A stretch of 32,000 bases of DNA from Planctomycetota bacterium (GTDB lineage: Bacteria; Planctomycetota; Phycisphaerae; SM23-33): contig JAKJER010000009.1 of the NCBI GenBank assembly GCA_022705325.1, positions 38,532 to 70,531 on the forward strand, given 5' to 3'. Within the stretch, counting starts at the first letter, position 1. Every line of letters begins with the position of its first letter. Below the pieces are notes generated by a model. That model was not told the DNA's origin and did not search any database. It saw nothing but the letters and a program-made list of their open reading frames with translations. Made by a program: the position numbers and the translations under genes. Below, piece after piece: positions 1-23,368 of this stretch.

Positions 1-3000
1 CCTATCAGTCGGCGGGCCAGACTCGGGGCATCTCGCTCCACTATGATTCCCTGCGAGCCGACCCGGTGCACGTGTACTACTTCAGCCTTACGCAGCTCTA
101 CGAGACCATGCAGGAAACGGACCCCAACCTGGACTACCAGATCGTCGTCCGCGTCCGGGCCCGGCTGGGCGAGACGATCCTGACGGTGGACGGGCTGGAC
201 AGCAAGCTGGCCGTACCCATGGGGCTCATGGGAGGCGAGCTGTTCTTCGAGATTCCCAACGACCTGGCGACCGACCGATACTACGGCATCGGCATTCCCA
301 TCGACTTTACCGGCGAGGAATTCGAGTCCGGCGGTTACACCATCCAACTCGAGGCGGGCCTCTACTCCTACACGGAAGACGACGACGGCAACCGCAAGTA
401 CACCGGGCGGATGATGGAAGTCACCACGCCCTTGCCGATCGTCAAGACCATGGACGGCCCGTTCGGTGCGGGCTGGGGCATGGAAGGCTGGATGGAGATC
501 CTGCCCGGCGACGGCTTCGTGCTCCTGGTCGACGGCAACGGAAACGAGCAGATCTTCTCCGCCCCCACCCAGGCGGGCGAGCCGTTCACCTCGGTCTCCT
601 CGGACTACTCCGAACTGAAGCAGTTGAGCGACGGGCGATTCACCCGCCGCATGCTCGACGGCACGGTCTATACCTTCAACTTCGACAACAAGCTCGAAAC
701 CGTCGCCGACCGCCACGGGAACACCACCACCTACGAGTACGACGACGACGGGTTCGTGCTCTCCATCACCGATCCGGTCGGCTTGAAGACCGTCTTCGAC
801 TACCACGGCAACCAGGTCTCGACAATTACCGACCCGGCCGGACGGATCACGCGCTTCGAGTACGGCAACCGCACATACAACGACGAAACGTATTCCGTTC
901 TCACCAGGATCATCGACGCCGACGACACGGACCGCTGGTTCCGCTACGAGAATGAAGACCACCCGCTCCTGGTGACCGGCCAGATCCATAAGCGCGGGCT
1001 CGAGGAGAGCATTACCTACGACGACGCTCTGTGGCGGGTCTCCGGGGGCGAACGAGTCGATGGCAAGACGGTGACGCTGGAGCCTGCCCAGGTCCGCGAA
1101 GGGTTTGTTGCCGAGCGCGACGACGAGGATCTGCTGATCTGCCGCGATCCGAAGCAGCCGACGGAACTGGCCGAACTGAGCCGAGTCGTGACCGAGACGG
1201 TGGGCGGCGTCACGACGGAAGTGATGAAGAACCAGGCCCAGGCCGAGTTCAAGGACTTCAACGAGCACCAGAAGCGATACGTCCTGGGGATGAACGGCTC
1301 GTACCTGCTGACCGAAGAGCTGGACGCCTCGGGCGGCACGGTGGCGGACGCCAAGCCCACGCGCGAGTTCACGCGGACCGAGTTCGGCGGGATCGCCGAG
1401 GAAAAGGACGCCCTCGGCAACATCATCAAGCAGGAGTACGACGAGTACAACAACGTCATCAAGATCACCGACTACCCCGACGGGCCCGGCACCGCTCGCG
1501 AGGCTGTCAACACCTACGACTACGACACCGAACACTGCAATCTGCTGATTGAGAAGACCGAGCAGATCAGCGACGGCCTGTTCCGGCGGACGACCTACGG
1601 CTGGACGCTCGCTTCCGGCGGCGACACGATGGTCCAGACCATCTACGACGACCTCGAACTGGGCAACATCGTCACCACCACCCATTTCTATGGCGATGGT
1701 CAGGTCCGCAGCACGATCGACGGCGTGGGGAACATCACCACGTACGTGTACGACACGTACGGCCGGCTCACCAGCATCACCTATGCGGGCGGGGCCGTCC
1801 GCAGGTTCGAGTACGGCGATCTGACGGGCAACCAGACGGCCGTCATCGACGAGAACGGCAACCGCACGGAATTCGTCTACGACGAGATGAACCGCGTCAC
1901 CGCGATTCGGAACATCATGGGCGTCGGCGCGACGTATACCACGCAGTACGACTATGACGAGGCGGGCAACCAGGTCGGCATGACCGACGCCCGGGGCAAC
2001 ACGACGAACTTCGCCTACGACGTATTGGGCCGCCGGATCAGCCGCGTGGACGAACTGGGACAGGCGACGTACTGGGGCTACGAGTACGGCGCGTTCACGA
2101 CGACGTATCTCGTGGCTACAGGGCCCGAGTACAGTTATGTGTACGAGAAGACGCCGCGCGGGTTCGTCCAGGTGACGGTCTACGACGAGTACTACCGCGA
2201 GAAGTACTACTACGACACCATGGGCAACCGCACCGAGACCGTGCGGGATGAGCTGGGACGGATCATCAAAGAGGTCGGCCCGTGGGGCACGCTGGCGACG
2301 TACGAATACAACGGGCGGGGCAAGGTCATCACGCGCATCGGGCCGGGCGACGGGGACGCGGGCATCATTCACTACGTCTACGACGACCTGGACCGCCTGA
2401 CCGTGCGGCGGGTTGAGAACGGCCTGGACGGCGCTGACGGCGACACCACCAACGACCAGGCCTACCGCTGGACGTACAATCATCTCGACCTGCCCACCGT
2501 GGAAGTCGACCCCGAGGGCTACCGCAAGGTCATCCACTATGACGCGGCCGGCAACCAGACGCAGGTGGTGGAAGCGGCCGGAACGCCTGAGGCCCGCACC
2601 ACGGACTTCGTGCAGTACGACGAGCGGAACCGGTTGCTCCAGACCCGTCTGGACGGCGTCTATCTCACGACGTACGAATATGACGCCGCAGGCAACCTGA
2701 CGGCCGAGATCGACGCCCGCGGGGCCCGCAAAGGGTACGCCTACGACGCGATAAACCGGCTGATCGAGACCACCGACGGCGAGGGCAACAAGACCGAGAC
2801 GATCTACGATGAGGTCGGCAACGTGGTGGGCGTGATCGACGGGCGGGCCAACGGCAGCCGCAGCGACACCACGTACCTCACCACGTTCGTCTACGACGAG
2901 GTCAACAGGCGGGTCGCGATGATCGACGCCGCCGGCGATCGCACCGACTACGAATATGACGAGGCGGGCAACATCATCACGATCACCAGCCCCCGGACCG

Positions 3001-6000
3001 ACGAGGGCGGCGGGCGATACGTGACCCGTCAACAGTGGGATGCCCTCAACCGCCTGATCGAGGTGGAAGACGCCGAGGGCAACAAGACCGAGTATCTCTA
3101 CGACGAGATGGGGCACCTGACGGCCGTCATCGACGCCCGGGCCCACGGCAACCGCGGCAGCAGCGCGTACCGCACGACGTACCACTTCGACCGGACCACC
3201 TACCGCAATGACTATGTCCGGGACGCCCTGGGCAACGTGGTCTACTTCGACTATGACCAGGCGGGCAACAAGATCCGCGAACGTTCTCCCCGCGACCACC
3301 AACTGGTCGCCACGGAGTACACGTACGACCGCCTCGACCGCTTGACCAGGACCACGTACGCCAAGGACACCGACGTGGAGACGTTCGAGTCCTGGGCCTA
3401 CGACGGGCTGGGCCGGGTGACCAGTGCCGTCGCCCTTACCGGCGGGACCACCACCTACAGCTACGACGGGGCCACCCTGACCACCACCGTCCGCAAGACC
3501 GACGGTACGAATACGTTCGTGGAGGTCTACCGCTACGACGTGGCCGGCAACCTCATCCAGTACGTCGACCCGCGTCCGCAGGCCTACCGTACCGTCTACA
3601 CCTACTATGACAATGACCTGCTCGAAAGCGTCACGTGGGCGGCTGGCACGGATGAGGAGGCTGTCGAGACGTACTTCTATGACCGGGCCAAGAACCTGGT
3701 TGCCGTGGTCGGCCCGCGGAAGAACGCGACTACGGGTCAGTTCTACCGGACGACCTTCGAGTATGACGCGCGGAGCTTCCAGATTGCCATGGTCGACGCC
3801 GAAGGCGTCCGGACGGAGTACGACAACGACGCGGCCGAGAACGTCATCGAGATGCGGAAGTACGATCGCAGCGGCACTGTGGACCGCGTGACCCGCAACG
3901 TCTACAACGGCGTGAGCCAGCTCGTCAAGCAGGTCGATCCGCTGGGGCGGGAGACGACTTACGAATACGACGAAGTCTACAACGTGCGGTTCGTCCATAA
4001 GCCGGAGAGCGACGCCGACGGTGCGCCGGTCTACAGCGAGTCCACCTACGACCCGCTGAATCGGCTGGTCCGCCAGCGGGATTTTGCCGGGTACACCACG
4101 CAGTTCCGCTACAACGAGGCGCTGCTGGTGAAGGTGATCGACGCGAGGGGTTACGAGACCCTCAACGAGTACGACCCGCGTGACCGGATCAAGAAGGTGA
4201 CGCAGGACATCGGCGGCGGCAGCCAGGCCGTCACGGAATACGCGTACGATGACGGCGCCCGGACGCGCGAGGTGAAGGACCCCGACGGGAACGTGACGCG
4301 CGAAACGTACGACCTGCTGGGGCGGATGACCTCGTCCACTCGGGCGTACGCTACTGCCAACGCTTTCACCGTTACCTACCGCTATGACGAGGCCGGCAAC
4401 CGTACGGAGGAGATCGACCCGCGTGGCGAGTCCTACGAGACGGCTTACGAGTACGACGGCCTCAACCGCGCCCGCAAGATCACCTGGGCCCCGGGGGTCC
4501 CCCTGGAGATGAGCGAGGTCAGGTACGATTACGATAAGGCCGGCAACTGCACGCGGTACGTCGATCCCCTGGGCAACGCGACCACGTATGCGTACGACGG
4601 CGTCGGCAACCTGGTGTCCGAGGTCGGTCCGACCGGGTTGGTCACCCTCTACCAGCGAGACGCTTATGGCAACGTGGTGACGGAGATTGACGGCTGGGGC
4701 GGGCAGACGGATAGCGAGTATGACAAGCTCGATCGTCTGACCTCCAGTACGGCCCACGTCGGCGGCGACACGTTCACCAGCTCCATCCAGTACTTTGACT
4801 CGCCCAGCCGTTCGCTTCTGACCGACGCCCTGGGCAACGTTACCGAAACGTGGTTCGACGGGGCCGATCGCCTGGTTCGCCAGAAGGACGCCGGCGGGTA
4901 TATCACCTACCAGGAGTACGACGGCGCCGGCAACCTGGTCAAGACGACCGATCCGGGCGGCAACGTCACGCGGTACGAGTACGACGGCCTCAACCGCCTG
5001 TCACAGGTCATCGCCTTCGCGGGCCAGGGAGCGGCTGAATACGTCAAACGCCGGGTTGAATACGATGCGGGCGGACGGGTGCTGCGAGACACCGACGCCG
5101 ACGGGGTCGTCACGATATACGAGTACGATTCGCTGGACCGGGCGACGATCATCCGTCGGGCGGCAGGACGGCCCGAGGAGACCGTCTCCCAGATGGGCTA
5201 CGACCCGCTCAGCGGGCGACTGAGCTATGAGGCGGGCGCGACCCGGACGGAATACCAGTATGACGCGCTGGGCCGCACGACGGCGGTCACCCAGGCGGCG
5301 GGCACGGCCAAGGCCGCCACCAATCGCGCCGAGTACGACGCTGCCGGAAACGTCACCGCGGAGGTCGACGTCACCGGCGCCAGGACCGAGTACACATATG
5401 ACGCACTCGGGCGGGCCCGGACGTCCATCCGCGTGTCCAGCGACGCCCCGCCCGGCTACACCATCGAATACGTGTACGACGACACGGCCCACAACCGGAG
5501 CGTCAGGACGATCTATCCGGAAGGCCGGACGGTCACCACGCACTACAACGACGAGGGACGGGTCGCCCAGATAGACGACAGCCGGGACGGCAATTGCCTC
5601 TACACCTACGACGCGATGGGCAACCTCATCTACTCCAAGGAGGGCCTGCTGGAGCGCAGCTACGGGTACGACGAACTCAATCGCCGGACCGCCATCACCG
5701 ATGCCGACGGCAATTCGACCGTCACCGTCTACGATCCCATCGGACAGATCGACAGCGTCACCGACGGCAACGGGGCGACGGTGGATTACGAGTGGGACGC
5801 CCCCGCCCGCCGCATGACCATTACAGAACGGGACGGCGGGCAGACCGTTCTGCTGTACGACCAGATGCGTCGACTCGCGAGCATCACCGACAGTTCCGGC
5901 AATGTCACGACCTATACCTACAACGCATTCGGACAGAAGCTGGCCGAAACCACCGCCTTCGGGGCGCGAACCTATACGTACGATGCAGCCGGACGGGTGA

Positions 6001-9000
6001 GCGACATCCAGGACCGCAACGGTCGCGCGATCTCGTATACGTACGACGAGCTTGGGTGGCAGACCGGCGAAACCTGGAAGAACGAGACCGGTTCGGTGGT
6101 CTGGACCGTGGAATACAACCGCGACGCCGCGGGACGACTCACCCGCGCTGCCGACGCCAATGCCGTCTACAGCTTCCAGTACGACGACCTGGGACGCCAG
6201 AACGTCGTGCTCGTGTCCGGGCAGGAAGGACTTGAGGACTTCGTATTCGATTATGACTACAACGGCGAGGACCTCGAGACCAGGCTGGTTGCCCGGGCCG
6301 GCGCCAGCGAACTGCTGACCAACGAGTACGCCTACCCGGCGGACGAGAACTACCGCCTGTCGAATATCTCGCAGGCCGGGGCGGCCGTGGCGGCCAAGTC
6401 GGTCGTCTTCGACTACGACGACGCGGACTACTCCACGCGAAGCGTCAGCCGCTACTCGGACCTGGCCCGCACGCAACTGGTGGCCCAGACGACCATCGAC
6501 TACAACAACCGTCGCCTGACCGACGAGATTGTCCACCGCGACTCCCAGGGCACGCTGCTGCACAGCCTGCGCATCGCCAGTTCCACCGGCGACGGCTACG
6601 ACGGGGCCGGCCGGATCACCGGAATCAGCAGCTCTGTTGACGGCGACGTCGCGTATACCTACAGCAACGAGGGCCAGCTCGAGCTGGTGGATTACTCCAG
6701 CGCCGCCCGGGCGGACGAGGCCTACGGCTGGCCCGATAACGGCAACCCGGAAGGCGTGGAGGTCGGCGCGGACAACCGCGTTCTCTCCGACGGCACGCGA
6801 ACCTACCAGTACGACGCCGAGGGCAACGTTCTCGAGGCCCGCGAGGCCACCGGGCAGGCCCGGGCCTACACCTACGACAACCACAACCGCCTGGTCCTGG
6901 TCGAAGACAAAGACGCGGACGGGACGGTCACGCGGCGGACGCAGTATCGCTACGACGCGCTGGGGCGACGGCTGGCCTCCGTCGTGGACGAAGACGCCAC
7001 CGACGAGATCGAAGGCGACAGCCGTTACTACGTCTACGACGGCACGAACGTGCTCGTGGAGTATGTCGACGAGGTCCTGGCAGTGGCTGGGGCGGAACTG
7101 GCCCAGGGCAACGGGACCGACACGGTCTTCACCGGCCGGCTCGACCACGGGCGCGTGGCGCCCACGTCGGTGCGGGTGCGGGCCGCTGGAGTGGAACTCA
7201 CCGACGACGGCGGCGGCGTGCTCTCCGGTCCGGGCGGAATGGTCGGCGCGATCGACTACGCCACCGGCGAATGGACGGTGGACACAGGCGCCACCGTGCT
7301 GAACATCGGCGAGGCCGTCCAGGCCGACTATCGCTTCCGCACCGAACCCCATCGCGACGCGACCTATCTCCATGGCGTCGGCTATGACAGCGCCCAGGCC
7401 GAGGAACGGGCCGACGGCAGCGTCTACTGGTACCTCACCGACCACCTCGGCAGCGTCACCGACGTGGTCGACCAGGACGGCACGCTGGTCGATCACGTGC
7501 AGTACAACTCCTTCGGCGAAGTCACCGCCCGCAGCAACGAGGACCTGGACAACCGCTACCTGTACACCGGCCGCGAGTACGACAGCGAGACCGGGCTGTA
7601 CTACTATCGCGCCCGCTACTACGACCCGCAGCTCCGCCGGTTCCTCAGCCGCGACCCGGCCGGGCTGTCCGGCGGCGATACGAACCTCTACCGTTACGTG
7701 GGCAACAGCCCGACCACGCACGTGGACCCGACCGGCAACTTCGGCATGTATGCCTCGCCGATGCGCCAGATGGAGCAGCGATTCAAGGCCTTCTGGGGCC
7801 TGAGCGACGAGTTCGTCGACCCCAACGCCTGGTGGCATGATCCCAAGAACGGCCTGTTCACCCAGCAGTCCCAGGTGGCCGCCAACTGGTTCTTCGGTTT
7901 CATGCCCCCGCCCAACATGAACTGGCTGGAGGCGATCGCCTGGCCGGTCACCAAGATCATCAACGACGTCAAGGAAACGCTGGTCAAGGACGCGATCGAG
8001 CGGGTCGAGGCCCGCGGCGGCGAGTGGGGCGTCATGGACACCCTGATGCTCACTGCCGCCACCAGCACGGTCGACATCGCCAATACCATCGCCGGGATCG
8101 TCTCGCCCACCTACGGCATGCTCCAGTTAGGCCCCATGATCGTCCACGCCCCGGAACTGATCTCCAACGGCTACAAGGGCGTCAGCGGTCTGCTGCACCG
8201 CGACTTCAGCGACGAGAATATCATCGAGACCTGCAACGTGGTCATGCTGGTCGCCCTGCCCGTGGCCATGAAGGGCGTCCACATGGTCCTGGAGGGGGGA
8301 CCGGTCGCCCGCCCGGTCGGCGGCAAGGGGTTCTGGTCCAACAAGGTCGCCCCCGTCCTCAACAGCATCGACAACCTGATGTTCAGCGAGCTGCCCGGCG
8401 TGTTCAAGACCGGCAAGCTCCGAACCGGCAGCACGCTGGGCGCCAACCTCCGCGGCCTGCTCGCCGACACCGTCAGCCTCTTCAAGTCCGACATCCGCGA
8501 GCTGATCACCTCGGAGTCCAAGGTCGCCAAGACCGCCAAGCCCACCGTGGCCAAGCAGGTCGCCGCCACCGCCGATGACGTCAAACCCCCCGCCAACAAG
8601 TCGTCCGATTTCCTTCGCGAGGCCGACTCGCCCGAGGTCAACCGACAGTACGATCTGCCCGAGAAGGTCAAGCCCACGGCTGAAACCCTCTACATGGACG
8701 AGAAGCAGATCGAGACCTTCTTCCGCACGGCCGACGCTAAGGGTTGGGCCAAGGACGTCGCCCGCACGATGGACAACATCCCCGAGTTGGCCAAGCAGGT
8801 CCGCGAGATCCTCAAGCCCGCCCGCGAGGCCCAGATGCAGACCCTGATGAAGGAAGTGCCTTGGCTGAACAATCGCAATCCGACTGCCGTCGCCATTAAG
8901 AACTTCCTGCGCTGGTGCGACGACGACGGCACGGGCCACTGGCACGCCTTCCGCAAAGGGCTCCTCGACGCCATCGAAAACAAGAAGATGACCCTCAAGG

Positions 9001-12000
9001 AGTTCGAGGTCTTCGGCTTTGCGCCCAAATGGCTGCGCGAAGGCATGATGGAGGCGACGATCGAGTCCGGCGACATGATCGTTGCCCAGGGCGCCAAGGG
9101 CACCTCCATGCCCGCGCTCTGGCTGGAGTACAAGGCCGCCCGCAATCTCCGAGAGGGCGGCCCCGTCAGTGCCAAGTACTATGAGATCACATGGGAGCTC
9201 GGATTCAAGGTTGAGAAGTATGCCAAGAAAGGGCCCATGGAGGCACAGACGGACATCGATGTGACGTCCGCCCGGATCGTCGAGGCCGCCAATGCCGTCA
9301 TCCGGGAAATGCAGAACCAGGCCCTCGACGGGGACATGACGGCTCTAAATGCCTTCGAGAAGTTGACCGCGTCGTCGGACTGCACGCCGCTTATCCAGTG
9401 GATCACCGGCGAGGTCAGCAAAGAACTCGGCCCGGCCAAGACGCTGCTGAACGAGATCGACATCCTGAACAAGAACACGCAGGTGAACAATCTCCGCCTG
9501 GATCTGGTCAACGTCGGCAAGCAGGTCGAGAACGCCCTGGCCAAGCAATTCCCGAAGTTTGCCGCCAAGAACGCCATCGACGTGTTCGGCTACACGTTCC
9601 GTCCGCAGACGCACGTCGAGACTATCATGGGCGGGTTGAAGTACTTCCCGGATCGCGGAGTAGCCCCCGCCTGGGTGCCGGGGCGGGCCATCACGACGAT
9701 CAAGGAAGTCCTGGATTGGCTGCCCACCAACTACCTGCCGCTGCGCAGCGACGTCGAGTCGCTTCCGTTTGCGCCCAATGCGGTCGAAACCACCGAGCCC
9801 GCCAAGCCCGTGTCGGCCGGTCAGGCCTACCCCGACGACGATCTGGGCGAAGGCGACAGTGCGGGTCCTGCTACGTCAGCAGAAGACTCCGTCGAGAAGG
9901 ACTTCACCGCGACCGTGCGCCGGATGGCCGAAGTGGCCGCTTCCGCCTGGGCCAGCTACCTGGGATTCGACGTGCCCGTGACCATCCAGGTGGCCGGGCG
10001 CGACCTGCCCGCGGGCGTTCTGAGCTGGGCGGCTATCCGAGAGTACGACGCTCAGGGCCGGCCCAAGGTCGGCGTGATCTTCGTCGATCTAGACGCAAAT
10101 GGGCGTCAATGGTTCGTCGATTCCACTCCGCTGGACCAGGAGGAGTTCCTCGGCGGCGTCGAACCGTTCTCGTACCGCGCCGACGCCACCGGCGACGCCT
10201 ACGGCTGCTATGACCTGCTGACCACGCTGCTGCACGAGGTGGGCCACATGATCGGCTTCACCGACTCCTTCGCCGGTTTCGCCGCCAGCGTGACTGGCGA
10301 CTCAGCCGGGCAGTCGTTCTTCATTGCAGACGGCGTCAAACTGGAACTCACTCCCGATCGCGACCACCTGGCCGGCGCCCGCGTCGATCTGATGAGCAAC
10401 ACGCTGCCGCTCTCGCAGCGCCGCCTGCCCTCGCCCAGCGACATCCAGGTCCTTCGCTCGGCCTGGAGCGGACTGACGGCCGCGGGCGGCTGGCAGGTCG
10501 AACTGCTGCCCGAGGATGCCGAGTTCCTGGCCCTCAGCAGCCAGCGGCTGGGCTTCGTCCTCATCGACGAAGCGGTCGCCGCCGACGCCGTCGACCCGCA
10601 CAGCGGCATTTTCAACGGCGACTTCGCCATCTCCGATCCTGCCGATCCGAACTTCGGCTGGCGGACGTTCGGGCAGGTCGACATCGCGGACTCGATGGCC
10701 ATCCTGGGCGAATCCGGCGAGTGGCTGTTCAGCGACCTGTCCCAGACGTTCCGGGTCCCGCTCGGGGCCAACGAACTGCATCTGACGCTGTCGAACGTGC
10801 TGCTGGAGTCGCTGGTGGGCGTGCCCGGCGATGCCTTCGAGATCGCCTTGCTCGATGCCGCCAGCGGGCTGTCCGTTCGCGGACCGATGACCGGACTGGA
10901 CGGCGGCGACGCCCTGTTCAACCTCCAGGCCGACGGGACTGTCTGGTTCGCCCCGGGCGTGCGGCTGGAGGAGTTCCCCGAGGCGGTCTCGGGCCAGATC
11001 ATCTCCCTCGAAGGACCGCTCCACCTGACCGTCTATCTGCCGCCCGCCATCCAGGGCGGCGTGGCCGTGCTCCTGGCGGACCTGGTCGGTTTCGGTCAGC
11101 CGCAGGCCTCTGCCCAGGTCGATTCGGTGACCCTGACGGCAGGCCCCGTCGAGAACGAGCCTCCCGTGGCCGTCGACGACCAGGCCAGTGCCGGGCCGGA
11201 CACGGATGTCACCATTTCCGTCCTGGACAACGACAGCGACGTCGACGGCAGCCTGATGCCGGCCACGGTGGTCGTCTCCACGGCGCCGGCATGGGGCGTC
11301 GCCGTCGCCAATGCCGACGGCACGATCACCTACGCGCCGCAAGGCTTCGTCGGCGAGGTCACCTTCGGCTATACCGTCCGCGACGACTGGGGCGATGTCT
11401 CCAACGAGGCCATCGTCACCGTTACCGTCGGGGCCAACACGCCCCCGACGGCCGACGATTCCATGCTGGTCATCGACGAGGACGTCCCCTCTTCCGGCGC
11501 CGTCACAGGGAGCGATGCCGAGGGCGATCCCCTCACCTTCGCCCTGGTGGACGGAACGGCCCACGGCAGCCTGGAGTTCAACGGGGACGGAACGTTCACC
11601 TACACGCCGGACGGCGACTGGTTCGGCGCCGACAGCTTCACCTTCACCGCCAACGACGGCGAGTTCGACTCTTCGTTGGGCACGGTCAGCATCACCGTCA
11701 ATGCGGTCAACGACGCCCCGACGGCTGACGACGCCGACTTCGCCACAGACGAAGACCTTCCGCTGGAGGGCCTGCTGAGCGGCGCCGACATCGAGAATGA
11801 TCCGCTCACCTTCGCCCTCGTCCAACAGCCCGCGCACGGCTCGGCTGTCGTCAATGGCGACGGGACGTTCACCTATACCCCGGACGCCGACTGGTTCGGG
11901 GACGACAGCTTCACCTTCACCGCCAACGACGGCGAGCAGGATTCTCCGTTCGGCACGGTGAGCATCACCGTCAATCCGATCAACGACGCCCCGGCCGCTG

Positions 12001-17547: not shown

Positions 17548-17874
17548 ATGGCCTCAGAATACGTCGATTGCTGCGAAAACCCGTCCCTGGAGAAGGTCAA
17601 GGTGTTCCTCTCGACGGACTACGACATCGTTGCCATTCGGCGATGCCGCTCGTGCGGATGCTACTGGTACTACTGGATGAAGGAGCGGACGTTCAGCGAT
17701 GCCGACACCTATGACCGGAGCATCTGGTACGTGCGCCTGAATCCCGAGGAAGCGAACGTTCTTGCCGACGCTTCGGCGGCGCCGGAACTGAGCCTGTTCA
17801 AGGACCGCCCGGGTCTCCTGAAGGACTCCGACGGCATGAACGCCATCCGGGGCATCCCGCGGTTTCTGGAGTAG
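17548..17874 (+). CDS. Small Cys-rich hypothetical protein (108 aa) between the two plus-strand RyR-tail genes
   Basis: GGAGG at 17537-17541 precedes the ATG at 17548 (MASEYVDCCENPSLEKVKVF...). Composition is diverse and protein-like, with high GC3. Cys cluster: CC(8-9) and CRSCGC(33-38). I recognised no family. The listed ORF start at 17461 adds an Arg/Trp-rich stretch with no RBS. Confidence 0.6.
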   Translation: MASEYVDCCENPSLEKVKVFLSTDYDIVAIRRCRSCGCYWYYWMKERTFSDADTYDRSIWYVRLNPEEANVLADASAAPELSLFKDRPGLLKDSDGMNAIRGIPRFLE

Positions 17875-17883
17875 GCGAGCCGA

Positions 17884-19647
17884 ATGAAACAGGTCTGGTG
17901 GCTCTGGAACAGGTTCGTACGACCGGGATGGAAGAAATGGGAATGGCCGGTGGTGGGGGCATTGGCGCTGGTCGCCTTTTCGCTGGGCACCTGGGGGTTC
18001 GCCCGCAAGTCCATCGAGAACGATCAACCCCTGTACTGGCTGGACATCCTGTTCCAGTCGGTGCAGTTGTTTGTACTCCAGCTTTCGCTTCAGTCTCCCA
18101 TGCCGTGGCAGTTGAACGTTGCCCGGTGGCTGGCGCCCCTGGTGGCTGGGTACACCGCCGTCCAGGCCGTGAGCGAGCTGCTGGCCGAGGAGTTCCTGGG
18201 TCTGCGGCTGCGCCTGTGGGGTCGCGGACACGTCGTCATCTGCGGGTTGGGTCGAAAAGGGATGATCCTCGCCCGCGGGTTTCTCCAGTGCGGGCGGCGG
18301 GTGGTGGTGATCGAGCAGGATGCGGAGAATGACCGCGTCCGCCAGTGCCGCGAACTGGGCATCCCCGTCCTGCTGGGCGACGCCGCCCAGGTGCGCCTCC
18401 TGGCCAGAGCGGGCGCGGACCGGGCCGAGTGCCTCTTCGCGTTCTGCGGCGACGACGGGGTCAACGCCGACATTGCCGTCCGGGCTCGCAGCGCGCTGGC
18501 TGGCCGTGACGGTCCGCCTCTGACCTGCGTGCTGCACCTTGTCAACCCGCAACTCCATGCCCTGCTGCAGGATCGCGAACTGGCGGGAGGGGAAGTCGGA
18601 TCCCTGCAACTGGAATTCGTCAATACCTGCGACCTCGGAGCGCGAGTGCTGCTGGAGGAGTTTCCGCTGGCGACAGGCGGACCGGCCGGTCCGCCGAGAA
18701 TCGTGATTGTCGGGCTGGGAGGCCTGGGTGAGAGTCTGCTGGTACACGCAGCCCGGCAGTGGAAGGCGTCGGCTGCGGGCGAAACAGCCCTGGACGTCGT
18801 GCTGGTGGACCGAAGCGCCCGAGAGGTGAGCGAGCGTCTGCTGGCGCAGTACCCGGGGCTCGATCGGGTCTGCTCACTGACGGTCCTCGACATGGACGTG
18901 AACTCGGCGGCGTTCCACCGTGCGGAGTTCCTGGACGGCTTGGCCCCGGACGCTCCGCCGCCGTGCGTGTTCGTCTGCGTGGACGATGACTCCCTCGGCT
19001 TGTCCACAGCCCTGGCGCTGGTGCGGCGCAAGCGGCAACCGGCACCTACTGTCGTGGTCCGCATGGCCCAGGAAACAGGACTGGCCGCGCTGCTGGGTGA
19101 GGATGCTCTCAATTCAGGGCGAGTTCACAACCTGCACGCCTTTGGGCTGCTGGATCGCACTTGCCGGCCGGACCAGATGCTGCGAGGCGTGCGAGAAGTC
19201 CTGGCCCGAGCCATCCACGAGCAGTACCTGCGACAGCAGAGGGAGGCGGGCGTGACGCGCGAGCAGAACTCATCGTTCGTGCCGTGGGAGGACCTGAGCG
19301 AGCACTTTAGAGAATCCAACCGCCAGCAGGCCGACGACATCGCCGCCAAGCTGCGGGCGGTCGGCTGCGCGGCTGTCCCGAACTACAACTGGGACGAGCC
19401 GCTCTTCGCCTTCACGCCCGACGAGGTCGAACGCCTGGCGCGGATGGAGCACGAGCGGTGGATGGCAGCCAAAGAGAAAGCCGGCTGGCGGCCCGGCCCG
19501 ACCAAGAGCGAGACACTCAAGACGCATACCTGTCTGGTGCCGTATGACGACCTGAGCGAGGACGAACGGGAGAAGGACCGCAGCGCCGTTCGACAGATAC
19601 CAGCCTTGCTTCAGCGGATCGGCTTTGGGGTGCACCGGCTGCGCTAG
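17884..19647 (+). CDS. Membrane protein (587 aa): N-terminal TM/pore-like segment + tandem RCK/TrkA-N NAD-binding-type Rossmann domains + RyR-domain tail
   Basis: Hydrophobic helices WPVVGALALVAFSLGTWGF (17944-18000) and ARWLAPLVAGYTAVQAVSELL (18121-18183) flank the short helix WLDILFQSVQLFVLQ. GxGxxG motifs: HVVICGLGRKGMILARGFLQCGRRVVVIEQD (GLGRKG at 18244-18261) and RIVIVGLGGLGESLL...VVLVDRS (GLGGLG at 18712-18729). The RyR tail is at 19189-19644. Confidence 0.85.
   Translation: MKQVWWLWNRFVRPGWKKWEWPVVGALALVAFSLGTWGFARKSIENDQPLYWLDILFQSVQLFVLQLSLQSPMPWQLNVARWLAPLVAGYTAVQAVSELLAEEFLGLRLRLWGRGHVVICGLGRKGMILARGFLQCGRRVVVIEQDAENDRVRQCRELGIPVLLGDAAQVRLLARAGADRAECLFAFCGDDGVNADIAVRARSALAGRDGPPLTCVLHLVNPQLHALLQDRELAGGEVGSLQLEFVNTCDLGARVLLEEFPLATGGPAGPPRIVIVGLGGLGESLLVHAARQWKASAAGETALDVVLVDRSAREVSERLLAQYPGLDRVCSLTVLDMDVNSAAFHRAEFLDGLAPDAPPPCVFVCVDDDSLGLSTALALVRRKRQPAPTVVVRMAQETGLAALLGEDALNSGRVHNLHAFGLLDRTCRPDQMLRGVREVLARAIHEQYLRQQREAGVTREQNSSFVPWEDLSEHFRESNRQQADDIAAKLRAVGCAAVPNYNWDEPLFAFTPDEVERLARMEHERWMAAKEKAGWRPGPTKSETLKTHTCLVPYDDLSEDEREKDRSAVRQIPALLQRIGFGVHRLR
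19189..19644 (+). other. Bipartite RyR-domain tail of the TM-RCK protein
   Basis: LARAIHEQYLRQQREAG...FVPWEDLSEHFRESNRQQADDIAAKL ... LARMEHERWMAAKEKAGWRPGPTKSETLKTHTCLVPYDDLSEDEREKDRSAVRQIPALLQRIGFGV. This is the closest of the three tails to the canonical RyR repeat consensus. Confidence 0.8.
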
Positions 19648-19659
19648 GCGGATGCGTCG

Positions 19660-22536
19660 TCATCCGGCGCGAACGGGGGCTCGCAGAATCGGCACGATCT
19701 TGAAGCCCGCCAATCTCGCCACGGCGGGATAGTTGCGTATGCTGGCGCGGTCCTTGTCCTTGTCCTGTTCGCCCAGTGCCGCGTAGGGTACGAGACAGTG
19801 ATTGAGCCGCCGAGCTCTCTGGCCCTTCTGTTCGTCCTGGGTCCGGGCAGGAGCGCACCTGCTCCATCCGTTGGCCAGCTTGATCTCCATCCAGCCCTTG
19901 TGTTCCTCTTCGGACAGCAACTCGAGGTGGTTTTCCAGGATCGATTTCAGTTCCGCCTCGCTTACGGCGTGGCGGGCGTCCTTCTCGTCCACAAGCTGCA
20001 GGCCGACCAGTCCCAGGATGACCGGGATGCGAACGGCGGCTGCGAAGTTGTCGCCCTTGGCCTCTTCGGGGAGCTTGGCGAAGTCGGTCTTGTACGCGTT
20101 CTTCTGGTCCCCCAGGGGGAACCATGCGGCGTGGATGGCCGGGGCCAGGCGCCAGGCGTGCTGCTGGAACGCCCGGTGCTGGTCTATGATCTCCATGAAC
20201 AGGTCCACTTCCCGGACATTCATCTCCAGCACTTCGTCGCTGGGCAATGCGGAGCGGTGGTAGTTGCCCTTGCCGGCCTGCTTGACCGGCATGACGATCT
20301 TCTCCATGGACCGCGAGCCGTGGCAGTAGTGACCGACTTCGAGCAAGGCGGCCAGCAGGCCCGAATCCATGTTCAGGCGCTCGCGGCTTTGCTTCTTCCC
20401 GGGGGCCATCATCCCCAGCCACGACCGCAGGAGAATCGCTCGCCGCACCGGGAAACACACGTCCCGCGGATCGTCCTGCCACTGCTCGCCGGGCGGGTTG
20501 GACGCGTGGAAGCATTGGCGCGGATTGGGCCCCAGGACGTTCAAGTTGCCGTGCAGGCGGCTCTTGAAGTCCGGGCCTTTCTTGAGCCGGAAGTCGGCGG
20601 CGGCTTCCTTGTGCTCCTTCACGACCTCGTCCTTTTGCGACCAGGGCCGCTCCGGCGGGCCGAAGTTGTCCATGTCGTAGCTGGTGGCCCCGGCAAAGAC
20701 GAAGATGCACCGCCCAATCGGGTGCGTGATCTGGCCTTCCTGGAACTTGCCATCCTGCATCGGGGCCAGCAGGTACTGCAGCCAGCGATAGTTCTGCGAA
20801 TCGAATTCGTCCCAGAACACGATGGGCAGCCCACCTTCCAGGACCTTGTCTCGCACCTGGTGGAAGGCGCCGATCAAGTCGGAGACGTCCTTGAACTGCG
20901 ACAGGTTGAACTCGAGGAAGGACTTCCTGCCGTGCAGGACGCAGTCCGCGATCTGCTTGATTCCGAACGACTTGCCCGCCCCCGGAGGGCCGAAGACCGC
21001 GATCGACAGGGGTTTGGTCTCGCTCGCGTTCCGCTCGTACTCCTGCATCAGTTGTTGAATGTTGCGCAGGGCCTCGATCTCGTCCCGGTCGGCGGTGAAG
21101 AGTTTCCCGTAGCTGGCGTACGGGACATTCCGCAGCCCCTCGAGCCCCAGCAACGCGACGCGCCGGCCCAGCCCGTACAGGGGCTGCTCGCGACTGGGTC
21201 GACCGTCACTGGTTTCCAAGATGCGCCATGTCTCGGCCGCGCCGCAGGCGCCTCCGTCAGCCGTCTGAGAGGGTGCGGCGCCGTCCGCTGACTCATGCGG
21301 CGGAACAATCGCCCGACCCAGTCCACCGAGCCTGCCCCAGTCCGCCTTGGGGGCCCGGGGCAGGTCCTTGGGCGCGGGGCCGTCGCCCGCCAGAATGACG
21401 GCCGCCAAGGCCTCCGTCGGCAGGGCGGGAGCCGGCTCCTTTGTTACACCGTGCCCCATGGCCCGCAGCAGCCGCATCGCGCTCAGGCCGCCGCGGATGC
21501 CTGCCGATATCCCGTCTGATCCCGCCCGCGACAGGTGAACAGCCAGCGCCGACGCGAACGTGGACTGGAAACCATAGGCATCACCTTCGGCGCCGCAGAA
21601 CTCGCGCGACCATTCCCCCTCCATGTAGCCAGGATCGAACAGCAGGGTGAAGCGGTGCCGGGCGGCGCCGTCCGCGTCCTGCACCCGCTCCATCCACATC
21701 GCGCCCTCGCCGTGCAGGGTGATGATCACATGCTTGGCCCGCCGAAGTCCCTCAAGCAGAGGGCTCTGGCACAACTCACGGGCCAGGTCCAGCGCCGTCC
21801 GCTCCCAGGAAATGCCTCGGCTGACGCGGACCTCGCAGGTCCGCAGGTCCCGGATCGACACGACCACCGCCAGCCTGTCGCGCAGGGCGGACGGCCCGCT
21901 CAACGCCCACCAGAAGGCCCCGTGGCAGACAGGTGCGCTGGTCTTCAGGACGATCCATTCCGGCAGGGGCCCGGACCCGTCTTCGGTGAGCGGCTGCAAC
22001 CAGTCCGGAACCTGAAAACGGAACCCGCCCACGTTGTCCTCGGCCAGCACGACCGTCGGCTCGAAATCCTCCCGTACGGACCCGGGCAGGTCGGTCGTGG
22101 GTAGGGGCTGTGAACCGGCTACCGAGCCCAGGCTCAGCGAGCGCCTCACCCGCCACACGTCGGTCCTTTCGTCGTCGGGGGTCTTGCCCAGCTTCCCGAA
22201 CTGGAACTTCTGCCAGAGGGCCGCGGTAGGGGGCGACATGAAGCGGTCCGGTTTTCCGGCGAATCCGATCTCCAGCTTGAACGTTCCCTCGTTCGTCTGG
22301 GCGGCCTGTTGCGCCACCGCGGACAGGATCCGGTGGGCGATGCCGGCGCCGCCGAGCGATACCCCGATCTGGGCCGGGGGCGTTCCGGGGGGCGGGTTGT
22401 CCTCGTTGGTGGGCAGGTAGATGTCATAGTCGTAGCCGTAGTCACCGGTGACGAGGATTCGTTTAGGGTCCGTCATGCCGTGTTCCTGACTGTGCTGTTC
22501 TCTGGTCATGCCTGTCGGTCGTTCTCGGTCAATCAC
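19660..22536 (-). CDS. Multidomain protein (up to 958 aa): degenerate PfkB/ribokinase-like N-domain + classical AAA+ ATPase + RyR-domain tail
   Basis: Walker A is AVFGPPGAGKS (GPPGAGKS = 20968-20991, minus strand). Walker B is IVFWDEFD (20800-20823). Sensor-like element FVFAGATS. PfkB-like cues in the N-domain (~21457-22464): ILVTGDYGYDYDIYLP...VSLGGAGIAHRIL, HVIITLHGEGAMW, CGAEGDAYGFQSTFASAL (compare GAGDAF). The start is uncertain. 22536 (GTG) is the longest option. ATG 22476 (MTDPKRILVTGD, preceded by AGGAA) or ATG 22509 is more likely. Confidence 0.85.
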   Translation of the reverse strand: MIDRERPTGMTREQHSQEHGMTDPKRILVTGDYGYDYDIYLPTNEDNPPPGTPPAQIGVSLGGAGIAHRILSAVAQQAAQTNEGTFKLEIGFAGKPDRFMSPPTAALWQKFQFGKLGKTPDDERTDVWRVRRSLSLGSVAGSQPLPTTDLPGSVREDFEPTVVLAEDNVGGFRFQVPDWLQPLTEDGSGPLPEWIVLKTSAPVCHGAFWWALSGPSALRDRLAVVVSIRDLRTCEVRVSRGISWERTALDLARELCQSPLLEGLRRAKHVIITLHGEGAMWMERVQDADGAARHRFTLLFDPGYMEGEWSREFCGAEGDAYGFQSTFASALAVHLSRAGSDGISAGIRGGLSAMRLLRAMGHGVTKEPAPALPTEALAAVILAGDGPAPKDLPRAPKADWGRLGGLGRAIVPPHESADGAAPSQTADGGACGAAETWRILETSDGRPSREQPLYGLGRRVALLGLEGLRNVPYASYGKLFTADRDEIEALRNIQQLMQEYERNASETKPLSIAVFGPPGAGKSFGIKQIADCVLHGRKSFLEFNLSQFKDVSDLIGAFHQVRDKVLEGGLPIVFWDEFDSQNYRWLQYLLAPMQDGKFQEGQITHPIGRCIFVFAGATSYDMDNFGPPERPWSQKDEVVKEHKEAAADFRLKKGPDFKSRLHGNLNVLGPNPRQCFHASNPPGEQWQDDPRDVCFPVRRAILLRSWLGMMAPGKKQSRERLNMDSGLLAALLEVGHYCHGSRSMEKIVMPVKQAGKGNYHRSALPSDEVLEMNVREVDLFMEIIDQHRAFQQHAWRLAPAIHAAWFPLGDQKNAYKTDFAKLPEEAKGDNFAAAVRIPVILGLVGLQLVDEKDARHAVSEAELKSILENHLELLSEEEHKGWMEIKLANGWSRCAPARTQDEQKGQRARRLNHCLVPYAALGEQDKDKDRASIRNYPAVARLAGFKIVPILRAPVRAG
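19690..20154 (-). other. Bipartite RyR-domain tail of the AAA+ protein
   Basis: LAPAIHAAWFPLGDQKNAYKTDFAKLPEEAKGDNFAAAVRIP ... LSEEEHKGWMEIKLANGWSRCAP...RRLNHCLVPYAALGEQDKDKDRASIRNYPAVARLAGFKIV. It has the same two-part layout as the other two tails, but the first half is more diverged. Confidence 0.7.
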
Positions 22537-22578: not shown

Positions 22579-22986
22579 CTATCCGCGTGCGGCCCACGAT
22601 CGGGCCAGATCGCTCCACCCGTCGGTCAAATCATAATCAAGCAACTGCGCCATGGGGATCCACGCGTGCTTGTCGTGCTCCTCGCTCAGCGCGAATGTCC
22701 CGCCGATGACCGCAGTCTCCATGCAGAGCGTTGCCACCCGGACCTTCTCCATCTCGAACCCGAACGCCCCCGCGACGCCCAACACCTCAACGGAGAGCCC
22801 CGTTTCTTCCGTCACTTCGCGCCGCAGGGCTGCATCGAATGTCTCGCCGGGGTCCATCTTCCCGCCGGGCAATTCCCATCGTCCGACGAATCGCTTGCAC
22901 GCGTTAGCGCGGCGGAGCAGCAGGCAGTGACCGTGCTCGTTGCGAATCACCGCCCGGACGGCCAAGCTGTAGGGTTTGGCGAGCAT
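22579..22986 (-). CDS. Nudix hydrolase (135 aa), directly upstream of and co-oriented with the AAA+/RyR gene
   Basis: The Nudix box is read directly: GGKMDPGETFDAALRREVTEETGL (G-x5-E-x7-REUxEExGU). SD GGGAGAAGG precedes the ATG at 22986 (MLAKPYSLAVRAVIRNEHGHCLLLRR). The longer listed start at 23034 has no SD and adds MARRAKGFVSSNREKA. Confidence 0.85.
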   Translation of the reverse strand: MLAKPYSLAVRAVIRNEHGHCLLLRRANACKRFVGRWELPGGKMDPGETFDAALRREVTEETGLSVEVLGVAGAFGFEMEKVRVATLCMETAVIGGTFALSEEHDKHAWIPMAQLLDYDLTDGWSDLARSWAARG

Positions 22987-23368
22987 TGCCTTCTCCCTGT
23001 TGGAGGACACGAACCCTTTCGCGCGGCGGGCCATGGAGGTCGGCTGGACAGTGCCGTCCCACGCTCGCGGGCGAGGGGGCTGCCTGGGCCAAGGACATGC
23101 GCGATCCCGGCGTCAGACCAGCGCCGGCCCGGCGCTACTGCGAAACTGTCACTATGATACCGGCCGGGGTACTCCAGGCAACGAGATTCTCGTCGGTGGG
23201 GCAAACGGAACGTGCCGCTGGTGCTTGGCCGGGCTTGCGGCTTGCCTGCAAGGCAGTAGAATACCGCGAAGGACCGGACGCGGGCGGTCGTGGCCGCGCC
23301 CGCCGGCGTCTCTCTAGCCGAGCGGCGAGCTTTCTCCCGCGGCACGTTCGCGAATAAGGACGACGGTC

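Follow-up and report, generated by a model that had tools for sequence, protein, structure and literature searches.

A gene for a candidate nucleotide-gated channel was analyzed in a 32,000-nucleotide stretch of DNA from a Planctomycetota bacterium (assembly GCA_022705325.1, contig JAKJER010000009.1, positions 38,532 to 70,531 of the forward strand). This whole stretch is called the window below. The channel-like open reading frame (ORF), at 17884-19647 on the plus strand, is open across 587 amino acids and encodes a pore-like membrane domain, two RCK Rossmann domains, and a tandem RyR module that resembles Repeat12 (R12) of the animal ryanodine receptors. We lean toward the view that the protein is a cation channel gated by nucleotides and that a conflict system, probably an anti-phage one, uses it as its effector. 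Relatives of the gene lie in clusters typical of nucleotide-signaling immune systems and, therefore, the gene is probably their membrane output. The family to which the protein belongs, defined by the combination of pore, RCK, and RyR domains, appears to be undescribed.

The N-terminus of the 587-amino-acid ORF is common to homologs. The gene starts 9 nucleotides past the stop codon of a small upstream ORF and ends 12 nucleotides short of the 3' end of a convergent gene. The source genome is 7.0 Mb in 108 contigs and is estimated to be 97% complete. The parts of the protein are given below, with transmembrane helices 1 and 2 abbreviated as TM1 and TM2. Conservation here and in the following paragraphs refers to an alignment of 85 homologous sequences.

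17884 to 19647, plus strand: whole ORF, 587 amino acids, pore-like domain followed by RCK1, RCK2, and a tandem RyR (R12-like) module (Pfam, AlphaFold2, Foldseek)
17944 to 18018, plus strand: predicted TM1 or outer helix, residues 21-45, with W21, L34, and G38 invariant and G35 nearly so (AlphaFold2, Kyte-Doolittle)
18037 to 18111, plus strand: predicted re-entrant pore helix, residues 52-64, and filter-like loop, residues 65-76, with D54, Q61, L62, VLQ66LS, P72, and W75 (AlphaFold2, column counts, hhalign)
18112 to 18198, plus strand: predicted TM2 or inner helix, residues 77-105, with L77, R81, and P85 invariant and A80, L83, Y90, T91, and A95 nearly invariant (AlphaFold2, conservation)
18229 to 18669, plus strand: RCK1/KTN Rossmann domain, residues 116-262, with G121-x-G123-x-x-G126 and E144 (Pfam TrkA_N)
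18691 to 19179, plus strand: RCK2 or second Rossmann domain, residues 270-432, with G277-x-G279-x-x-G282 and D309, all invariant (AlphaFold2, Foldseek)
19189 to 19380, plus strand: RyR repeat a, residues 436-499, degenerate, with H445 and Y448 invariant and with W468, N479, and R480 (AlphaFold2, conservation)
19417 to 19644, plus strand: RyR repeat b, residues 512-587, canonical, with H523, W526, H548, and D565 (Pfam RyR)

The 587-amino-acid protein was modeled as a monomer with AlphaFold2 from the 85-sequence alignment. The model had a mean predicted local distance difference test score (pLDDT) of 89.5 and a predicted template-modeling score of 0.81. It begins with a helix at residues 2-45, which comprises an amphipathic N-terminus and TM1. 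A short helix at 52-64 (WLDILFQSVQLFV) and a loop at 65-74 (LQLSLQSPMP) come next, followed by a long helix at 75-111, which is TM2. The rest of the chain forms beta-alpha-beta Rossmann domains at 117-262 and 272-432 and two helical RyR repeats at 436-499 and 512-585. The original prediction, which was made from the sequence without database searches, had described a transmembrane helix, a short helix, a loop, a second transmembrane helix, and a tandem Rossmann pair, and the same elements were found in this model. The first, degenerate RyR repeat, with its helices at 436-454 and 473-492, is an element added to that layout.

Pfam matched TrkA_N at residues 117-204 (E 3e-18) and RyR at residues 515-584 (E 4e-19; 69.1 bits with a cut-off of 27.4). 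The second Rossmann domain had no Pfam match, and it is identified by its beta-alpha-beta pattern in the AlphaFold2 model and by Foldseek. NCBIfam models for the KTN parts of KefC, TrkA, and Kch were matched partially and far below cut-off. When the sequences of the Protein Data Bank (PDB) were searched, the matches were the repeats of animal RyR1-3, a small RyR-like protein of Bacteroides thetaiotaomicron (Bt), and the KTN domains of KefC and TM1088A.

Foldseek was used to compare the whole model with PDB structures. GsuK (4gx1/4gx2) ranked first with an E-value of about 1e-9, and its alignment reached 515 columns, with pore-carrying chains included. The TrkA gating ring, KefC-KTN, MthK, and Slo2.2 came after it, and the tandem-RCK proteins TrkA and GsuK aligned to the whole model over about 400-430 columns. 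The C-terminus of the model aligned with human RyR3 Repeat12 and with a Bt/human RyR chimera over 165-194 columns, with target-normalized template-modeling scores of 0.51-0.65. In the model, RyR repeats a and b are predicted to form an R12-like pseudo-dimer with two-fold pseudo-symmetry.

The likeness to GsuK and MthK lies in the order of the parts, which is M1, pore helix, M2, and tandem Rossmann RCK domains. GsuK is a K+ channel of Geobacter sulfurreducens with two transmembrane helices and two RCK domains per subunit (PDB 4GX0-4GX5). Its PDB entries hold NAD and ADP, and both GxGxxG motifs are kept in the present protein. As in RCK-gated channels with two transmembrane helices, RCK/KTN domains with the GxGxxG fold come directly after M2. 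Unlike GsuK and MthK, the present protein has no TVGYG and no Ion_trans_2 match and carries a signature of its own, [TV]L[EQ]SG[AS]. It also differs from them in lacking the RCK C-lobes, in having an extra C-terminal tandem RyR (R12-like) module, and in a gene context that is of the conflict type rather than housekeeping. Because the K+ signature and the Ion_trans_2 match are both absent, we do not file the protein as a member of the RCK-gated K+ channels with two transmembrane helices.

The N-terminal 113 residues were also modeled separately with AlphaFold2 from their own alignment (pLDDT 78). Nearly all of the top 50 PDB matches of this isolated domain in Foldseek were tetrameric P-loop channel pores. 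MthK pores headed the list, which also held NaK, KcsA, CNG-mimicking NaK, KCNQ, Slo2.2, MloK1, and NMDA receptors. The matches had root mean square deviations of 3.3-4 Å over about 85 columns and target-normalized template-modeling scores of 0.5-0.6. The resemblance to RCK-gated channels with two transmembrane helices, which had been suggested from the sequence, was thus borne out in that GsuK is the best match of the whole model and the isolated N-terminus matches almost only P-loop pores. The M1/pore-helix/M2 fold is a feature of the predicted structure.

The family profile was then aligned by hhalign with a control set of 21 canonical K+-channel pores, taken from the source genome and 40 relatives. 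A single local alignment was obtained (P = 0.013). In its register, the pore helix falls on the pore helix (D-LLY-LTLQ on s..lYfS.vT) and LFVL(E/Q)SGS falls on TTVGYGD. The nearly invariant P72 falls on the Pro that follows GYGD, and the invariant R81 falls on the conserved Gly-Arg/Lys with which M2 begins. The register is weak, yet it agrees with the fold result.

The original prediction had noted that a TVGYG-type filter is missing, and indeed the protein reads VLQLSLQSP at this position. Across the family, the signature [TV]L[EQ]SG[AS] stands in place of the K+ filter, which is thus not merely absent. Of the 85 sequences, 47 have Glu at position 66, 28 have Gln, 5 have Asn, and 3 have Asp. 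The present protein and its close relatives read VLQ(L/I)S and do not have the signature Gly. No clear association was seen between Glu or Gln at position 66 and the type of partner gene. With TVGYG replaced by the family signature, K+ selectivity is unlikely, and non-selective cation or Na+/Ca2+ permeation is more likely. In a tetramer, the residues at position 66 would form a ring, made up of four Glu in most members but of four Gln in the present protein. Our guess is that this ring argues for cation permeation without K+ selectivity.

Bacterial voltage-gated Na+ channels (BacNav), such as NavAb and NaChBac, have the selectivity filter TLESW. Most members of the present family read (T/V)LESG after the pore helix, and the ring of four Glu that this would form would resemble the high-field-strength site of BacNav channels. 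BacNav channels have six transmembrane helices, are voltage-gated, and carry no RCK or RyR domains, and the present protein has Gln instead of Glu. In a profile search of PDB sequences, no BacNav channel matched the N-terminal domain, either by sequence or by profile. We treat the likeness of (T/V)LES to TLESW as a lead only.

Conservation points to a membrane domain that is probably functional. Mean column identity is 0.67 in the pore helix and 0.70 in TM2, which is the most conserved part of the membrane domain, compared to 0.62-0.71 in the soluble domains, 0.59 in TM1, and 0.44 in the N-terminus. The polar residues D54, Q61, R81, Y90, and T91, together with P85, are invariant or nearly so. 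Hydrophobicity was scored as Kyte-Doolittle maxima over 19 residues. For TM1, the family median is 1.95 and 76 of the 85 sequences reach at least 1.6, while the median for M1 of the 21 control K+ channels is 2.22. For TM2, the family median is 1.60 and 42 of 85 reach at least 1.6, with a control M2 median of 2.12. At the level of the family, the hydrophobicity of both helices appears adequate. The mean number of Lys and Arg residues is 5.4 ahead of TM1 compared to 2.0 in the outer loops. Judged by this distribution, the N-terminus and the RCK domains are probably intracellular.

The original prediction had also suggested that nucleotide binding is retained in both Rossmann domains, on the strength of GxGxxG motifs followed by an acidic residue. 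These motifs proved to be genuine and conserved across the 85 homologs. In RCK1, at least 80 of the 85 sequences keep each of G121, G123, G126, and E144, and in RCK2, G277, G279, G282, and D309 are invariant (85/85). In the canonical RyR repeat b, H523 is found in 81 of 85 sequences and W526 in 71 (with Phe in 11), while H548 is found in 38 and D565 in 59 (with Asn in 20). Repeat a is more strictly conserved. Its H445 and Y448 are invariant, and W468 (84/85), R480 (83/85), and N479 (74/85) are close to it. Repeat a also aligns with the first half of the tail in the three other RyR-tailed proteins of the source genome, and the bipartite tails of all four proteins align over their whole length.

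The spacing of H523, W526, H548, and D565 fits that of H75, W78, H100, and D117 in the phage glycosidase RyDEP, a correspondence drawn by motif and spacing. In RyDEP these residues contact ADP-ribose (ADPR), and the pocket residues are stated to be conserved across PF02026 and animal R12 domains (PMC13232231). Two independent preprints from 2026 report that phage RyR-domain proteins have nanomolar to sub-micromolar affinities for 2'cADPR, 3'cADPR, and cyclic ADPR (cADPR), and that these molecules are also cleaved by one of the proteins; host multidomain RyR proteins are discussed in neither (PMC13232231; 10.64898/2026.06.04.730250). Because phage RyR modules bind cyclic ADP-ribose signals, the RyR module of the present protein is, by analogy, a likely sensor alongside the Rossmann sites. 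Our literature search returned no paper that joins an RyR domain with TrkA-N/RCK, STAND, SLOG, or effector-associated domains in bacteria.

The present protein shares the Pfam family PF02026 and the fold with both the phage RyR-domain proteins and the animal RyRs, and the His/Trp/His/Asp pocket residues are present in its repeat b. RyR3 Repeat12 binds ATP and ADP (PDB 6UHH, 9L9B). As in animal RyRs, the RyR module would be on the cytosolic side of a P-loop channel-like protein. The phage proteins differ in being small soluble homodimers that counter defense, whereas the present module is a covalent tandem repeat that ends a host membrane protein. Animal RyRs are channels with six transmembrane helices; they reach about 5,000 residues and have no RCK domains.

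A word-indexed search gave 713 significant matches among 8,000 scored candidates. Among the 120 matches listed, all but two carry TrkA_N and RyR, and those two carry TrkA_N alone. Few homologs are named, and the names are 'NAD-binding protein' or 'voltage-gated potassium channel Kch'. A HMMER search with a profile of the pore domain alone found at least 2,267 cluster representatives (50% identity) at E <=0.001, with 1,243 of them at E <=1e-10. In complete proteins, the pore domain is always joined with TrkA_N and RyR. Some variants were seen. P0051, P0053, P0056, and P0074 (730-790 amino acids) carry an extra pair of RyR repeats, and in P0368 (862 amino acids) the RyR tail is followed by a C-terminal HD phosphohydrolase domain. 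The idea that the unusually long members carry an enzymatic head, such as TIR, was rejected, as their extra length consists of these RyR repeats and the one C-terminal HD domain.

A scan of species-representative genomes gave 279 relatives, nearly all in metagenome-assembled genomes. Their phyla include Chloroflexota, Acidobacteriota, Gemmatimonadota, Bacteroidota/Ignavibacteriota, Planctomycetota, Nitrospirota, Desulfobacterota, Verrucomicrobiota, and others. Only 1 of 40 relatives of the source genome has a full-length ortholog, so the gene is accessory. Distant or split homologs were found on plasmids of cultured bacteria. On the Arcobacter sp. plasmid p121_Kiel_2759 (CP146529.1 41427-55978), split genes for an 'NAD-binding protein' and an 'RyR domain-containing protein' adjoin a gene for a DUF4062 (TIR-like) protein, and a type I restriction R subunit, an integrase, a recombinase, and a transposase are encoded nearby. 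This locus is a version from a cultured organism that is usable for experiments.

Gene neighborhoods were compared across 86 non-redundant loci, drawn from many phyla, with a mean flank of 12 kb each. Their ORFs were clustered and labeled with Pfam and custom hidden Markov models (HMMs), with custom TIR hits confirmed as Pfam TIR_2, and partners were counted within 10 kb. TIR-domain genes were present in 31 of the 86 loci (46 genes, often TIR-WD40). In 16 loci the gap between the TIR gene and the channel gene is 300 bp or less, and 40 of the 46 TIR genes are co-directional with the channel gene. Another RyR-tailed protein of any kind was encoded in 37 loci. This count includes nSTAND-RyR genes, which lie beside the channel gene in 21 loci, and RelA-TPR-SLOG-RyR genes, which occur in 10. 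Less frequent partners were NUDIX (10 loci, usually adjoining the RelA-SLOG-RyR gene), DUF4062-NACHT-TPR (9 loci), Clp-like AAA (7 loci), and SLATT proteins with two transmembrane helices (4 loci). The commonest partners across the family are thus TIR and nSTAND-RyR genes and not the RelA/SpoT synthetase.

At least one conflict-type partner was found in 55 of the 86 loci. Where at least 5 kb was available on both sides (n = 35), 28 loci have a labeled neighbor and 7 have none. The density of TIR genes falls from 0.076 per kb at 0-2.5 kb to 0.006 per kb at 7.5-10 kb, a drop of about 13-fold, and that of RyR-tailed genes falls from 0.085 to 0.006 per kb over the same distances. The background of TIR_2 in the source genome is 0.0027 per kb. 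The proposal that the protein is a candidate membrane effector, made before from the single island, is strengthened by this tight linkage to TIR, RyR-tailed, NUDIX, STAND NTPase, and SLATT genes.

In the four SLATT loci, a SLATT protein of about 535 amino acids is encoded directly upstream of the channel gene (L018:6452-8059, L020:8025-9683, L056:8283-9911, and L067:7886-9583), so that these loci hold a pair of unlike candidate membrane effectors next to each other. In 10 of the 86 loci, the channel gene is directly preceded by a conserved gene of about 190 amino acids, which usually comes after the nSTAND-RyR gene (for example L009:9136-9813, L014:2101-2685, and L061:9374-9928, plus 7 loci). 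This conserved gene has no Pfam match. Its motifs, GVTGHR … AEGADRLV … WDG....G.GGTG, look SLOG/LOG-like, and it may be a nucleotide sensor or processing enzyme. One locus (L004:6226-9812) has two paralogous channel-like genes in tandem. They are followed by genes for CHASE2-TIR, a NUDIX hydrolase, RelA/SpoT-TPR-RyR, and a rhodanese, and this is the fullest version seen on a single strand.

In the mechanism that we favor, the protein would be a tetrameric ligand-gated P-loop cation channel, to which each subunit gives an M1/pore-helix/M2 unit around a central pore. Two Rossmann domains per subunit would make an eight-domain gating ring as in GsuK, and four R12-like RyR modules would extend this ring. 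The sensors would be STAND, WD40, and TPR proteins, many with TIR heads, and TIR or RelA/SpoT-like enzymes would make a signal derived from an adenine nucleotide. As candidates for this signal we consider an ADP-ribose derivative produced by TIR, for example an isomer of cyclic ADPR, and a product of the neighboring RelA/SpoT-like enzyme. The signal would bind to the RyR pocket, the Rossmann sites, or both, and the gating ring would then open the pore. Ion gradients would collapse, and the infected cell would be arrested or killed. The NUDIX neighbor may clear or buffer the signal.

Several observations weigh against a signal-gated channel of this kind. In profile-sequence (HMM) comparisons, the N-terminal domain matched no channel. 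Neither the protein nor 30 family N-termini, the latter at E-values up to 10, matched Ion_trans or Ion_trans_2 in Pfam, and a profile of 30 N-terminal sequences found only a chance match, to photosystem II protein W (E 1.4), among all PDB sequences. The P-value of the hhalign alignment is marginal. The Foldseek E-values of the isolated domain are 0.4-2.7, chance matches are possible for three-helix domains, and the model is a monomer; such weak values are, on the other side, what is expected of a three-helix domain. The hydrophobicity maxima of the present protein are modest (1.66 for TM1 and 1.32 for TM2), with TM2 under the usual threshold. Moreover, buried stretches of soluble neighbor proteins equal these values, so the Kyte-Doolittle scale cannot show that this is the sole membrane protein of the island, as had been stated in the original prediction. 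Since the clade of the present protein has Gln66 and no signature Gly, its pore may differ or be closed. The missing RCK C-lobes also count on this side. As for the genes, the channel-like protein has no match in the PADLOC library, there is no TIR gene in the window, and the only TIR-RyR protein of the genome is encoded on another contig.

Another possible explanation is that the protein is a membrane-anchored nucleotide sensor, buffer, or hydrolase with no conducting pore, whose N-terminal helices only tether and oligomerize. The signal would be bound by its RCK and RyR modules or, as in RyDEP, cleaved by the RyR module. The protein could then be a sink for the signal, regulate by feedback, or recruit other RyR-tailed proteins to the membrane as a scaffold. 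In favor of this are the findings at the N-terminus, with no HMM-level homology to channel pores, weak fold matches of the isolated domain, and no filter signature of known channels. However, the re-entrant helix and TM2 bear invariant polar residues and are conserved like the soluble domains, and a plain anchor needs none of this. The pore-like domain is also found only in the RCK-RyR architecture, across the whole set of clusters given above. Phage RyR proteins are sponges or glycosidases for cyclic ADPR, and the catalytic His/Asp pair of RyDEP has counterparts in H523 and D565 (PMC13232231), but the variation at H548 and D565 argues against a conserved catalytic role. A scaffold would be in keeping with the bipartite tail that the four proteins of the genome share, as effector-associated adaptor domains do. 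The two RyR repeats, though, are predicted to pack on each other as in RyR3 Repeat12, which leaves little reason for hetero-dimerization between tails. We regard a protein with no pore as unlikely.

It is harder still to credit a housekeeping cation channel, for K+ or another ion, that is regulated by NAD(H)/ATP like Kch, MthK, GsuK, and TrkA and is placed beside conflict genes incidentally: the architecture and the best structural match, GsuK, which binds NAD+ and ADP, the names carried by some homologs, and the 7 of 35 well-flanked loci with no labeled conflict partner are all in line with it, but the full-length gene is nearly absent from the 40 related genomes, the source genome already has TrkH and two canonical Ion_trans_2 channels, the gene is closely and co-directionally linked to TIR and RyR-tailed genes in a way that fades with distance, the K+ signature is absent, and the RyR module has no known role in bacterial ion homeostasis.

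A related question is whether the protein could be a peripheral regulator of the TrkA type. TrkA and KtrA form the gating rings of the TrkH and KtrB transporters, and they share the nucleotide-binding tandem Rossmann domains with the present protein, with TrkA rings among its top structural matches. The source genome encodes TrkH on a different contig, and its two canonical Ion_trans_2 channels are encoded elsewhere. As soluble proteins, TrkA and KtrA depend on a separate membrane partner, whereas the present protein carries its own membrane domain within the polypeptide, and this domain is as conserved as the soluble ones. We therefore do not see in it a peripheral regulator of the TrkA type.

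The favored reading, a nucleotide-gated channel effector, was also compared with type X Thoeris, its nearest functional precedent. In this system, the TIR protein ThsB and the 'ion channel' effector ThsK protect B. subtilis against a phage, and the signal was stated to be unknown in the 2025 preprint (10.64898/2025.12.03.692087). The two have in common a TIR gene near the gene of a P-loop channel-like membrane protein. In type X the genes adjoin, and the present family is near TIR in the 31 loci counted above. A type X TIR listed in Table S1 of the preprint was traced to a Vibrio contig, where a gene for a 208-amino-acid protein (L102:3369-3995) lies between two ThsB_TIR genes. This protein has a K+-channel-like P-loop, AFTLTYGGFSP, and no Pfam match, and from gene order only it is probably ThsK. 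Identity of the present protein with ThsK was rejected, as BLASTP of the probable Vibrio ThsK gave E-values of at least 3.8. The probable Vibrio effector has no RCK domain, no RyR domain, and no sequence similarity to the present protein and, therefore, the present family is a different candidate effector. The TIR domains differ as well, being ThsB_TIR (PF08937) in type X and TIR_2 (PF13676), often fused to WD40/STAND, near the present family. In addition, no TIR gene adjoins the channel gene in the window, unlike in type X.

The family combines kinds of proteins that are already known, namely RCK-gated P-loop channels, TIR-linked channel effectors, and RyR-domain nucleotide binders. If the channel reading is true, a 587-residue channel with an RyR Repeat12 module would be a compact system for the question of gating by cyclic ADP-ribose-type signals. 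The question of nucleotide gating is decades old for the animal ryanodine receptors, and it has been revived by the two phage studies from 2026. Bacterial immunity of the TIR-based and alarmone types would also gain a large effector class, with members in many phyla. The pore signature would be new as well, being a non-K+ signature in a P-loop pore that is joined to RCK domains. The RyR tail is common to the signal generator, the NTPase, and the channel, which hints at a wiring principle for multi-component signaling. With considerable doubt, we also propose that the members of the family are cation channels and that an ADP-ribose signal derived from TIR gates them by way of the RyR Repeat12-like module. 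The channel would serve as effector in a multi-component immune system that is as yet undescribed, and the generator, the NTPase, and the channel would all read one signal through the shared RyR tail. The family might then be the prokaryotic counterpart, and possibly the evolutionary source, of the disputed link between cADPR and the ryanodine receptor in animals.

In the window, the channel-like gene is part of a five-gene block, the other members of which are as follows.

14146 to 17376, plus strand: RelA/SpoT-like synthetase with SLOG domain and RyR tail, 1076 amino acids (Pfam RelA_SpoT, weak LSDAT_prok, RyR)
17548 to 17874, plus strand: small Cys-rich ORF (CC…CxxCxC), 108 amino acids from ATG (sequence; no family match in Pfam, NCBIfam, or PADLOC)
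19660 to 22536, minus strand: convergent AAA/nSTAND-type NTPase with RyR tail, 958 amino acids (Pfam RyR, bpMoxR, AAA)
22579 to 23034, minus strand: NUDIX hydrolase, 151 amino acids (Pfam NUDIX, E 1e-22)

In PADLOC, the RelA/SpoT-like synthetase received a weak PDC-S33 match only. Its orthologs, paired with NUDIX, are the RelA-SLOG-RyR genes found next to the channel gene in the 10 loci counted above. An ortholog of the AAA/nSTAND-RyR neighbor (L008:2231-4945) matches nSTAND_NTPase5 and RyR. The small Cys-rich ORF has a homolog solely in a locus that is 95% identical (L001), and for this reason it was rejected as a form of the conserved upstream gene of about 190 amino acids. A foreign composition of the island was also rejected, as its G+C content is 64.9% compared to 65.5% for the window.

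Elsewhere in the source genome, 19 TIR_2 matches were found. The only RyR matches outside the window belong to one protein of 830 amino acids on contig C60 (L101:6266-8758, minus strand), the TIR-RyR protein mentioned above. It carries a TIR_2 domain at the N-terminus, an AAA/nSTAND-like P-loop (LSIAVFGPPGAG), and a pair of RyR modules. Its gene stands alone among glycosidase and EngA genes. That the source genome encodes such a TIR-AAA-RyR fusion counts in favor of the channel-effector reading. The five-gene block of the window, in turn, is flanked by a giant RHS/cadherin protein and housekeeping genes. The giant frame (window 3-13955, plus strand), which extends beyond the edge of the window, exceeds 4,600 residues, and its 15 matches to RHS repeats precede bacterial cadherin and Ig domains.

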